A stretch of DNA of 13,563 nt from the IMG/VR virus record IMGVR_UViG_2778261358_000001; one strand, 5' to 3'. Source of the stretch: a virus. Taxonomy: Duplodnaviria; Heunggongvirae; Uroviricota; Caudoviricetes. The position numbers are program-made. Shown piece by piece: positions 1 through 3,000 of this stretch; within the stretch, counting starts at the first letter, position 1; every line of letters begins with the position of its first letter.

Positions 1-3000
1 GTATCAGCACCTGAATCCGCGATTATCCCATATACCTGGTTGCTGATCGCCCCTCCGCACAGGGGGATTCACCATGCAGAAGTGTTTTTAATAAACAGCA
101 AATAAAAAAATCAAGCATTATGCAGGCTGTTTCTTTTTATCACCGGCCACAGCAATACCACAATGCCGCAGACCAGCACCCCATCCGCCAGCACCGACAT
201 GATTCTGCTGGTGAAATCCACCATCACCACCAGAAACAGCAGGAGTGCAGCCACAGCCAGGCGCAGTTTTACCGTCACTGGTGATTCTCCAGACGAAGAC
301 CCAGAACACCGGCAATCTCTTCCAGCACCTTGCGCTCTTCCGGCTCAATTTCGCCGTCTGCCTCCGCAATGGCCACCGCCACATCCAGCACATCTTCCGC
401 TTCACGCGTATCGTGTTTCACATCTTCAATTTCACGCAATGCCGCTCGACGACCAATTTTAAAGTTCGTATCCAGCTGACCGATAATGGTTGCGCTAATC
501 GCATTAATTTCTGACGTAAACGCGGACAACGCAGGCTGGTTACGCAAGACCTGCTCGATCTTCGCTTTCTCTGAAGCCTCACATTCACCATCTGCATAGG
601 CCACCAGATAGGCAGCATTAATAACCGCCTGTGCCAGATCACGTTTCTCAAACTTTTTAATTTCCACTGCCGCTCGGCGGGCTTTTTTACCAAAAATACC
701 AAACATCGTGACGTTCCTTTGGGTGGGTGAGCCAACGCCCGGGAGCGATCTGCCCACAGAGAAAGTCACACTGACCACTCCGTAAGCTCACCCCCGAAAG
801 GCTCTGTGGTTGATATGCGCCGGGCGTGGCGCAGATACAAAAAAAGCCCGCCGAAGCGAGCCTGATAATAAATCTGGAGCGGGTAGCGGGAATCGAACCC
901 GCATCATCAGCCTGGAAGGCTGAGGTAATAGCCATTATACGGTACCCGCATATGGTGCCGGCTACCGGAATCGAACTGGCGACCTGATGATTACAAGTCA
1001 GTTGCTCTACCATTGGAGCTAAACCAGCATGTTTGGCGGGACAGCGTGGACTCGAACCACGATAAGAAGGTTAACAGCCTTCCGTAATGACCTTTATACG
1101 ACTGACCCAAATAAAAAAAGCCACCGTTGCAACTTAAGAGTCACTAACGGCAGCTTACATCTTTAAACGGTATGATATTTCATTCTGGCTGCCTCAAAAG
1201 CCGCAGCGGCAAGTTCGGCAGTGTCATGGTATCCAAGGTTAATACACTTTCCAGACGCATTAATTCTTGCTCTCCATTTCCCGTACTTAGCATCCCAAGA
1301 CACGCCACGGTATCCAGATTTATTATTCTTCTGAATTTTCCTGTTTTGCATATTTTCGGAATGAGTGACAAGACGAAGATTTGATATCCGGTTATCTGTT
1401 CTTACCCTGTTGATGTGATCAATAAAACCATCTGGCATGGTGCCATAAACAATCAACCATGCCAGTCTGTGAGCAGGGTATGCTTTACCATTAATCATAA
1501 TCATTAAATACCCATCAGAATTTATTGATGAGCATTTCTTGAAAGCAAAACGAGAGTTCCATGTCAAAGTGGTCCTCTCTCTCCCCTGCCTCCACCTCCA
1601 GTGAAAGTCGCCTGATGATGGATTGTAATCAACAACAGAAAGCACCATTTCTGGCGTTAATTTTATTTCTTTCATCGCTTTACCTTAGGGATAGAGCCTG
1701 TTCGCGTAGATATGACAGCCAAGAGCGGAGCGATGTTTCCACCACCATATCTCAGGCCCATATCACTAAGACTCTTGTTTTGATTGCACGCGAATGCAAA
1801 AAAGCCCACAGGAGGTGGGCTTGTGATGGTTGCTGAATGCAAAAGCAGCAGCATATGTGAATATTATGGCTAAATGGCTAATTGCATGTCAAGACTTTTA
1901 ACAGCAACATGCTTAACTTTCTCAACACGTTTACGCATTTTGAAAGCATTTTGCATTGGTTGGTACAAAACAAATAATGACGCTTTCAGGATATCGTCAA
2001 TTTCGTTTCTACAGGTTGCCAGTGAAGGTTTTCTCCATCCCTCGCCACCGCGTCCACACATCTTGCGTGGCTTTGCAGTCGCGTGATAGTAGGATGCAAT
2101 TGCTCTCTTAGATGAACCATGAGCGTAGTAGCTGAGGAGGATGCCAAAGGCTTTCTTGTCAATGTACATGACGGAATCGACGACCTGAGAAATCAACATT
2201 CCATCATCATCATTGCACATTGGTCTTGTCATAACTCTTCCCGGCTCTACGCTCTCCATGAACTTCGCTATTACGCTGCTCATGCGCTTTTCCAGACGAC
2301 CTGAATAAACCCATGCGCCCCACAGTTCAAGCCAGCCATTCAGCCAATCGTGCTGTTCTTTGGTGAGGTTTGGTTCTCTTATGCCCATGCGACTTCTCCC
2401 TTGTTATCTGGAATGGTTTTTACTGAGAGCGTCATGCGGCCTCACTTCTGCTGTTTCGCAGGTCTTTGAGTTTCTGTTGGTACTCTGCCTTGATGGCCCT
2501 GCACTCTTCGACAGTCCAGCGATGGCGGTTATGGTTTGATTCGATTTCATCTACTGCTTCCTGCCCGATGCGGCTAATCAGTTCGACGCGATACAGAACG
2601 AGATTTCCGCTTTTGTGCTGGTTGCACACCACGCATTGCTTGTGAATATTGCGTTCATCAAATCGGAGTTGAGGTGCCGCAGCAGTTGTCCGGTAATGTC
2701 CGGCATCCCACTGAGCAGACGTGAGCGTTCCGCACGAGATACATGGTAAGTCGCGGTCTCTTTCTCTGACGAAGGCGTTTACGGCTTGTTGGGCTTGTTT
2801 AATCCAGTAACTGCGGGGCTTTAAGGCGAGTTTTCGAATCTTCAGTTTATCTTTCTGTTTCTGCTCCTCTCGTCGTCGTTTCTTCTCTGCTGCTTTTTCC
2901 GCTTTTTCGCGTTCTTTACTTCGTCGTTCGAGTGCTAATTGAGTTCCGTGTTCCGGGCAGCACCACCACTGATTTGAGAATGCCGGGTGAAACCATTCCT

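Follow-up and report, generated by a model that had tools for sequence, protein, structure and literature searches.

We describe three transfer RNA (tRNA) genes, tRNA-Asn(GUU), tRNA-Thr(UGU), and tRNA-Gly(UCC), that lie in a row on the minus strand of a 13,563-nucleotide (nt) stretch of Caudoviricetes DNA (IMG/VR virus record IMGVR_UViG_2778261358_000001; the whole stretch is called the window hereafter). The explanation that we favor for the locus as a whole, and hold to be slightly more probable than not, is that of a recombinant late-operon cassette with a functional tRNA-Asn, a nuclease-resistant tRNA-Thr, and a tRNA-Gly under relaxed constraint. The existence of the genes, their order, mosaic ancestry, context, and population pattern are direct observations; from these we infer expression, processing, and charging of the tRNAs, resistance of tRNA-Thr to the nuclease P2-OLD, and decay of tRNA-Gly. 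Beyond this, we suggest tentatively that the G42U/U43C arm of tRNA-Thr, and a related G42C/U43C arm, may represent a naturally selected, minimal two-nucleotide route to resistance against OLD-family anticodon-arm nucleases for host-derived tRNA-Thr(UGU) copies in lambdoid prophages, spread among late-leader cassettes by intra-tRNA recombination, in which case the trio of this O55:H7/O157-associated prophage lineage would be an anti-defense island and not a codon-usage aid. New here are the recombinant origin, a two-nucleotide, thrU-derived tRNA-Thr allele that fits a published two-factor rule and follows an all-or-none pattern, and the evidence that tRNA-Gly is probably decaying.

Three tRNA genes on the minus strand

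The genes for tRNA-Asn (1034..1108), tRNA-Thr (953..1028), and tRNA-Gly (875..949) are 75, 76, and 75 nt long, each with an encoded CCA, and are separated by spacers of 5 nt (Asn to Thr, 1033-1029) and 3 nt (Thr to Gly, 952-950). Rfam model RF00005 (gathering score, 29) matched all three on the minus strand with E-values of 4e-8 to 7e-10, at 1108-1037 for tRNA-Asn (55.3 bits), 1028-956 for tRNA-Thr (49.0 bits), and 949-878 for tRNA-Gly (55.4 bits); host tyrU scores 53.4 bits under the same model. A preliminary description of this DNA had listed three tRNA genes with these two spacers, which Rfam and the sequence bear out, but it gave neither the strand nor a cause for calling the middle gene Thr-like, namely, two mismatches in the anticodon stem. 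ARAGORN scoring, which it had proposed as a check, supported tRNA-Asn(gtt) and tRNA-Gly(tcc) at default settings, whereas tRNA-Thr(tgt) was called only when the threshold was lowered to 90% (-ps90). All three tRNAs have U33, A37, a GG in the D loop, TTCGA, and CCA, but tRNA-Gly has C8 and a possible C32-G38 pair, and tRNA-Thr has only three canonical anticodon-stem pairs. By established rules, the identity elements expected are the GUU anticodon and G73 for Asn; G1-C72, C2-G71, G35, and U36 for Thr; and G1-C72, C2-G71, G3-C70, C35, C36, and U73 for Gly. All of these are present in the window.

The trio is already publicly annotated and belongs to the known lambdoid late-leader tRNA cassettes. 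It is annotated in Escherichia phage JLK-2012 (JQ347801; 99.7% identity) and in about a dozen complete Escherichia coli genomes, mostly O55:H7, and near-identical public records (PGAP) list tRNA-Asn, tRNA-Thr, and tRNA-Gly, with tRNA-Thr left unannotated in CB9615-type genomes. Open reading frames that overlap the tRNAs (687..1013, minus strand; 826..987, plus strand) were treated as spurious, no Pfam match having been found where these were searched.

tRNA-Thr is a chimera of two phage modules

Nucleotides 1-26 of tRNA-Thr, comprising the 5′ strand of the acceptor stem and the D arm, are exactly those of the phage 21 tRNA-Thr, and nt 27-76 are of the E. coli thrU type with four changes, G42U, U43C, A49G, and U68C. 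Two of these preserve pairing (A49G gives G49·U65, and U68C restores G5-C68), and only G42U and U43C break pairs: they leave A27·C43 and C28·U42 mismatched at the top of the anticodon stem, with three of the five pairs and the loop CUUGUAA remaining, whereas host thrU has a perfect 5-base-pair (bp) anticodon stem with paired CNG motifs. An A52·C62 mismatch in the T stem is common to both. Under RF00005, the window tRNA-Thr scores 25 bits below thrU.

Phage 21 carries the pair tRNA-Asn(GUU)/tRNA-Thr21(UGU), which is also present, without a tRNA-Gly, in Sf6, BTP1, SPN9CC, and many P22-like and lambdoid phages; its late region has the order pR′, Q-binding element, terminator, tRNA-Asn, tRNA-Thr, and holin. 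The window resembles phage 21 in that the cassette directly follows the pR′ leader terminator and in that the leader and tRNA-Asn, along with nt 1-26 of tRNA-Thr, are 100% identical; unlike phage 21, it has a third tRNA gene (Gly), an HNH endonuclease gene, and a different Q gene and promoter before the leader. An IMG/VR scan with the Thr-Gly junction recovered more than 100 prophage contigs with a thrU-like tRNA-Thr, the spacer TAT, and a glyT-like tRNA-Gly, in the architectures Thr-Gly alone (49), Met(CAU)-Lys(UUU)-Thr-Gly (34), Met(CAU)-Arg(UCU)-Thr-Gly (14), and Asn-[Thr]-Gly (4). Since this Thr-TAT-Gly module is widespread in prophages and nt 1-26 are of the phage 21 type, tRNA-Thr is, on sequence grounds, a chimera, and the trio a product of recombination between a 21-type Asn-Thr module and a prophage Thr-Gly module, with the crossover placed in the shared D-arm sequence GGTAGAGCA. 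More generally, late-region modules of lambdoid phages appear to be joined by recombination at tRNA genes.

Direct capture of the host operon was considered as the immediate origin and rejected. Host thrU and glyT are members of the thrU-tyrU-glyT-thrT-tufB operon, and only the mature tRNAs match the cassette; the flanks and spacers differ, and tyrU is absent. A further scan of genome contigs with the 15-mer junction GGCACCATATGCGGG over 596 Gb proved too unspecific: nearly all of its 120 matches arose by chance, and the cassette was present only in L132 (Citrobacter braakii) and L208.

We also observed that similarity between cassettes does not extend past the CCA of the final tRNA and that the window crossover is internal to a tRNA gene. 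In Klebsiella phage ST101-KPC2phi6.1 (L274 601-917), an Asn-Phe-Thr-Arg cassette lies 3′ of the antiterminator gene, and its tRNA-Thr has a phage-21-type anticodon arm, yet its acceptor 3′ strand, AGCCGGC, is that of the window. This shared strand hints that tRNA segments have been shuffled further between phages of different hosts.

The 42/43 change fits the published rule for P2-OLD resistance

P2-lambda interference has P2-OLD as its effector; set off when Gam inhibits RecBCD, this nuclease kills lambdoid infections by cutting host tRNA-ThrU(UGU) after C28 and C40, inside the paired CNG motifs at nt 28-30 and 40-42 (Govande et al. 2025, Nucleic Acids Research, PMC12445682). Only UGU tRNA-Thr rescues from P2-OLD; the phage 21 tRNA-Thr(UGU) does so, but overexpressed host thrU does not (PMC12445682). 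Resistance is determined by the anticodon arm and takes both an altered CNG motif and a stem shortened by loss of the 27:43 pair, either of which alone has no effect (PMC12445682).

The window tRNA-Thr has the UGU anticodon, as decoding of ACA in place of tRNA-ThrU demands. Its G42U change turns CAG on the 3′ strand into CAU and unpairs C28, and U43C unpairs A27, so that the 27:43 pair is lost and the anticodon stem is shortened to three pairs. Because G42U/U43C supplies a motif change, on the 3′ strand, and the stem loss together, we infer that this tRNA would be OLD resistant and could serve as a replacement for tRNA-ThrU. Two tRNAs that protect against P2-OLD offer a comparison. Phage 21 tRNA-Thr21, with a 4-bp anticodon stem and altered CNG motifs, attains the short stem and altered motif through C28U/G42A and G27·A43, and the window tRNA-Thr through G42U/U43C. 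tRNA-Thr6, the strongest P2-OLD rescuer in the published study (PMC12445682), is a thrU-like phage tRNA with 12 differences from thrU, the resistance of which is set by the anticodon arm alone; like the window tRNA-Thr it has lost the 27:43 pair and has a changed CNG motif, but it uses G30C/C40G and U43A, with one pair lost, whereas G42U and U43C cost the window tRNA-Thr two pairs. JLK-2012 encodes Gam, the trigger of P2-OLD, and this phage type should thus trigger OLD. The preliminary description had suggested that the trio might counter host tRNA depletion; for tRNA-Thr, this is the best-supported role, given the rescue by phage 21 tRNA-Thr and the presence of both resistance features.

A role against the PARIS system, with tRNA-Asn and tRNA-Thr as further targets of PARIS/AriB, was considered and dropped, since the PARIS paper mentions neither tRNA. 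As a separate observation, many IMG/VR prophage contigs (L008, L016-L019, and others) carry Met(CAU)-Lys(UUU)-Thr(UGU)-Gly(UCC) or Met(CAU)-Arg(UCU)-Thr-Gly, and tRNA-Lys(UUU) is the published PARIS/AriB target.

The double change occurs without single-site variants

Positions 42/43 of the thrU-type anticodon arms of Thr-TAT-Gly cassettes read GU at 102 loci (14 alleles), UC at 26 (6 alleles), and CC at 3 (3 alleles). When position 42 was scanned for bases other than G, UC (29) and CC (2) were the sole matches, and a scan for G42 with a non-U at position 43 gave no matches, so that single-site variants were not found among thrU-type arms from IMG/VR prophage contigs. The UC arm occurs in at least five cluster architectures and up to eight alleles, in the same downstream and flanking contexts as wild-type GU. 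Among complete E. coli genomes, the exact UC allele was present in prophage cassettes only, and in the thousands of genomes where the chromosomal thrU is the one copy, it was always of the GU type. Such a pattern at 42/43 would fit a signature of selection.

Variation within the trio itself was counted over 22 trio-type loci (11 haplotypes). Variable sites numbered 0/75 in tRNA-Asn, 1/76 in tRNA-Thr, and 6/75 in tRNA-Gly, and 10 of the 45 nt immediately 3′ of tRNA-Gly were variable; the difference between tRNA-Gly (6/75) and tRNA-Asn plus tRNA-Thr (1/151) gave P = 0.006 by Fisher's exact test. The single tRNA-Thr polymorphism within the trio lineage preserves pairing. The sister alleles of the CB9615 type have U8/A10 in tRNA-Gly and U68 in tRNA-Thr.

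The carriage of a few tRNA genes by temperate phages has been a matter of debate for decades. The locus looks like an arms race between P2-OLD and tRNA-Thr in natural prophages of a lineage related to enterohemorrhagic E. coli. If so, GU, UC, and CC would form a natural allele series, simple and testable, for the substrate rules of OLD, and tRNA genes would be the recombination joints at which anti-defense cargo is reshuffled among lambdoid phages, including relatives of Shiga toxin (Stx) phages. The locus also counsels caution in calling such tRNA genes pseudogenes on the strength of poor predictor scores.

tRNA-Asn is a conserved phage tRNA

tRNA-Asn has a U4·U69 mismatch, G73, and an anticodon stem, GAAGG/CCUUC, without a CNG motif. 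It is unlike host asnT and is identical at 75/75 positions to genes of phage 21, BTP1, ST64T, HK446, and others. In the most distant of its close homologs, that of Klebsiella phage ST101-KPC2phi6.1, the pairs 6:67, 7:66, and 28:42 are changed on both sides while U4·U69 is retained; since the mismatch is kept where other pairs covary, it reads as a conserved family trait, not a lesion, in what the covariation marks as a structurally constrained tRNA. The acceptor mismatch in the preliminary description is thus real, but it is a trait of the family and not a peculiarity of this locus. The best explanation for tRNA-Asn is a conserved tRNA of the phage lineage with a predicted function in the cell. 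A common variant of this tRNA, of the Salmonella phage SPN9CC type (L275 401-475; 98.7% class), has A72 opposite G1, forming a G1·A72 mismatch, and this A72 corresponds to just one half of the U1-A72 pair of the host and T4-like tRNAs.

tRNA-Gly is probably decaying

tRNA-Gly is a copy of glyT with C6U/G67A, which are compensatory, U8C, and A38G (4/75 differences). The donor-type allele (31 loci) differs from it by U8C and A38G only, and under RF00005 the window tRNA-Gly scores 9.5 bits below glyT. C8 and G38, both noted in the preliminary description, are real, and the deviations of the trio are not shared by the host genes, glyT having U8 and A38 and thrU a perfect anticodon stem. A38G lets C32-G38 and U33-A37 pair; the stem is then predicted to be 7 bp long with 3 nt in the loop, which would hide the anticodon. 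The variable sites among the trio-type loci fall at canonical positions 8, 10, 39, 53, 63, and 66; four of the six break Watson-Crick pairs, and the lesions differ by branch (C8; A10; U39; C53; C66). The pair-breaking, branch-specific substitutions and the excess of variation suggest relaxed constraint, and tRNA-Gly is probably decaying in this lineage; where C8 and G38 had been proposed as adaptations, they look more like decay.

G38 is fixed in 22/22 trio-type loci. On other glyT-like backgrounds it is a rare singleton (2/99 in one scan), and it was seen once in an otherwise intact donor-type allele (L281). We considered and rejected G38 as the mark of an old, structurally maintained phage lineage of tRNA-Gly, because the compensatory stem changes belong to backgrounds that are 97/99 A38. 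The window tRNA-Gly keeps both CNG motifs and A37, as do host glyT, thrU, and asnT, whereas the phage tRNA-Asn has neither motif; by this motif match, host tRNA-Gly(UCC) might be an OLD substrate. In E. coli genome matches H146-H148 and H150 and in one IMG/VR allele, the glyT-derived gene adjoining a UC-type tRNA-Thr has the anticodon UAC and is annotated as tRNA-Val. With G38 as well, and with 1 nt missing from the 3′ acceptor strand, that gene looks like a damaged or reassigned copy of tRNA-Gly.

Codon usage of the late genes

The codon usage of the JLK-2012 late genes was compared with that of a 50-kilobase K-12 sample, in codons per 1,000. ACA plus ACG amounted to 34.2 versus 17.5 and GGA plus GGG to 34.9 versus 15.2, whereas Asn codons, at 37.9 versus 37.6, were not enriched. 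Stronger skews were found for codons without a phage tRNA, namely, AGA plus AGG (9.7 versus 1.9, 5-fold), CGG (14.3 versus 3.5, 4-fold), and AUA (7.4 versus 2.4, 3-fold). The support of late-gene codon usage that had been suggested for the trio fits only in part: ACA plus ACG and GGA plus GGG are about 2-fold enriched, but Asn codons are not, and the more skewed codons are left without a tRNA. Codon supplementation is plausible for tRNA-Thr and tRNA-Gly but is neither specific nor sufficient as an explanation. For phage L, codon supplementation has been proposed for the tRNA-Asn, 24 of 25 capsid Asn codons being AAC (PMC8022706); the same paper puts such tRNA genes at the late operon's 5′ end and notes that the route of their expression is unknown even there (PMC8022706).

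Proposed mechanism and competing explanations

In the mechanism that we propose, the cassette would open, at the 5′ end, the Q-antiterminated late operon of a lambdoid prophage resembling 933W and JLK-2012, and the tRNAs would be made only when Q lets RNA polymerase pass the leader terminators. Host tRNA-processing enzymes would then cut the tRNAs out of the late transcript. tRNA-Thr(UGU) would act as a functional, nuclease-resistant stand-in for host tRNA-ThrU, with which the ACA codons of late proteins could still be read in a cell with a P2-type Old defense. tRNA-Gly(UCC) would be carried along with the Thr-Gly module and would at most add decoding capacity for GGA and GGG.

Several points weigh against this proposal. 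The CUG motif on the 5′ strand of tRNA-Thr and C28, which is cleavage site 1, are intact. The mutants tested in the published study do not include the G42U/U43C combination, and the rescue tRNAs tested there have a 4-bp anticodon stem, compared with 3 bp in the window tRNA-Thr (PMC12445682). The predicted cloverleaf of this tRNA lies 7.9 kcal/mol above the minimum free energy, versus 1.3 kcal/mol for thrU, and its standard register is less stable, by 2.9 kcal/mol, than a shifted register of 4 bp with a 10-nt loop, so that tRNA-Thr could be crippled. Expression of the tRNAs would come late, but OLD is set off by Gam at an early stage; codon counts in Q, N, and other early genes revealed no avoidance of ACA, of which Q has one. 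The OLD-sensitive wild-type arm persists in the majority of thrU-like copies from prophages, and defense evasion therefore cannot account for the family of cassettes as a whole. UC may have arisen once and spread by recombination, without recurrent selection. Finally, the Klebsiella homolog of tRNA-Asn has paired CNG motifs, so that absence of CNG motifs is not a rule of the family.

Pure codon supplementation, with no anti-nuclease role and with the stem changes of tRNA-Thr as tolerated noise, we regard as rather unlikely. The twofold frequency of ACA plus ACG and of GGA plus GGG in late genes relative to host genes speaks for it, as do the proposal made for the phage L tRNA-Asn (PMC8022706) and, in line with a dosage effect, the identity of most cassette copies of tRNA-Thr and tRNA-Gly to thrU and glyT of the host. 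It is at odds, however, with the unenriched Asn codons and with the greater skews of AGA/AGG, CGG, and AUA, for which no phage tRNA is present, and it explains neither the occurrence of 42/43 variants as doubles only, without single-site intermediates, nor the protection that phage 21 tRNA-Thr affords against P2-OLD where overexpressed thrU fails. That tRNA-Thr, tRNA-Gly, and perhaps the whole trio are decaying relics, nonfunctional leftovers of recombination in a junk-tolerant leader, seems improbable. The rejection of tRNA-Thr by ARAGORN at default, the drops in Rfam score relative to thrU (25 bits) and glyT (9.5 bits), and the missing PGAP annotation of tRNA-Thr in CB9615-type genomes would all follow from it, as would the energetically disfavored cloverleaves of tRNA-Thr and tRNA-Gly, the pair-breaking substitutions gathered by tRNA-Gly, and the conversion of glyT into a damaged Val(UAC) gene in a sister lineage. 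Yet tRNA-Asn and tRNA-Thr vary at 1/151 sites in contrast to 10/45 in the adjacent noncoding DNA, the single tRNA-Thr polymorphism and A49G keep pairing, the 42/43 double change is common to six to eight alleles and at least five architectures, and each gene retains its anticodon, CCA, and, by the established rules, its identity elements.

The changes in tRNA-Gly might instead be adaptive, A38G, possibly with U8C, evading a toxin that cuts or modifies the loop or altering decoding; phage tRNAs have reportedly been proposed, in an eLife paper of 2023, to evade defenses through anticodon-loop mutations. The fixation of G38 in the trio-type loci and its recurrence on at least four glyT-like backgrounds, including the otherwise intact L281, are in keeping with this idea, which we nonetheless consider improbable: elsewhere G38 is a rare singleton (2/99), the C32-G38 pair is predicted to zip the loop shut and hide the anticodon, further lesions have arisen by branch at positions 8, 10, 39, 53, and 66, both OLD motifs are retained, and a nuclease specific for tRNA-Gly(UCC) was not identified in this analysis. 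Barely credible, in our view, is the notion that tRNA-Thr adopts the shifted register (C28-G45, U29-A44, G30-C43, A31-U42; 10-nt loop) and works as an unconventional decoder, by frameshift or four-base reading, or as a nontranslational RNA. Although within the cloverleaf this register is more stable than the standard 3-bp one, by the 2.9 kcal/mol given above, the CC arm variant loses one of its pairs (A31·C42), so that the alternative helix is not conserved, and in this register the variable region would be 3 nt long and the L shape distorted; nothing else supports the notion.

Genomic setting of the cassette

The early region of the window (2407-13489), with stk kinase, cI/cro, O/P, and nin genes, matches the 933W Stx2 prophage of EDL933 at 98.7% identity and phage JLK-2012 at 99.1%; the whole window was not found in any complete E. 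coli genome of the collection searched. The element is a mosaic lambdoid prophage. The segment from Q to the cargo has been replaced, which leaves the window with a backbone of the 933W kind that lacks stx in this place.

On the minus strand, the order is Q, a promoter-like site, a repeat with a terminator, an HNH-AP2 endonuclease gene, the phage 21 leader, the three tRNAs, a hairpin, tciA, tciB, and the start of an STnc100-type small RNA (sRNA). The trio thus does lie between Q and late cargo, as the preliminary description had it, but with the HNH-AP2 gene between Q and the tRNAs. The Q-family antiterminator gene (1870..2388, minus strand; Pfam Phage_antitermQ, 1e-25) has 84% DNA identity to the Q region of JLK-2012. 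It is followed by a candidate late promoter region (1802..1892, minus strand) with TTGACA-18 nt-CATAAT at 1892-1863 (11/12 consensus matches), an assignment as putative late promoter made from the phage 21 annotation. Within this region, the direct repeat ATTAGCCA/TTTAGCCA occupies the place of the phage 21 Q-binding element, and a terminator hairpin, recognized from the sequence, follows the candidate promoter (1822-1802, minus strand).

The HNH-AP2 (homing-type) endonuclease gene (1163..1675, minus strand; Pfam HNH_3, 2e-18, and AP2, 2e-8) is also present in E. coli UTME-3 and is missing from JLK-2012 and phage 21. It lies inside the late-operon leader, with the window's own promoter-like site and terminator upstream and the phage-21-type leader remnant downstream; a late transcript would then have two leader terminators to pass. 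The remnant (1157-1109, minus strand) has the same sequence as the phage 21 segment that carries a terminator annotation (PMID 1704887) in OL657228. Its homology begins about 2 nt past the point where late transcription starts in phage 21, and it contains a tR′ hairpin (1156-1118; predicted energy, −20.2 kcal/mol) and a T-run (1117-1111) that adjoins tRNA-Asn. We looked for a promoter-like site between the leader and the tRNAs and found none. Directly 3′ of tRNA-Gly is an intrinsic-terminator-like hairpin (863-844; fold energy, −12.3 kcal/mol) with a T-run (837..863 in all, minus strand). JLK-2012 and the O55:H7 prophages have the same trio (99.7%), with an identical tRNA-Gly, and the same tciA/tciB cargo, but JLK-2012 differs in having a phage-21-type promoter directly upstream, no HNH insertion, and the 84% identical Q allele.

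The ileZ-argN-argO cassette of Stx phages lies in the same place, with Q on one side and late or cargo genes on the other, as the preliminary description had pointed out, and the tRNA identities indeed differ (Ile(CAU), Arg, and Arg, compared with GUU, UGU, and UCC in the trio); the sequences are unrelated. The cassette of phages such as 933W is said to have been described by Plunkett et al. in 1999 in the Journal of Bacteriology. Literature searches on ileZ/argN/argO and on the O55:H7 phage returned nothing usable. Related Met(CAU)-Arg(UCU)-Thr-Gly cassettes exist.

The cargo downstream consists of tciA (706..275, minus strand; TerB family) and tciB (278..111, minus strand; DUF3927), assigned from Pfam, translation, and the annotations of JLK-2012 and UTME-3. 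At the edge of the window, a partial match to the STnc100 sRNA (1-103, minus strand; 47 bits) is cut off. In a related prophage (L006, 4650-4901), a full STnc100 (148 bits), followed on the opposite strand by the anti-GcvB sRNA AgvB, lies between tciB and a nanS-like esterase gene.

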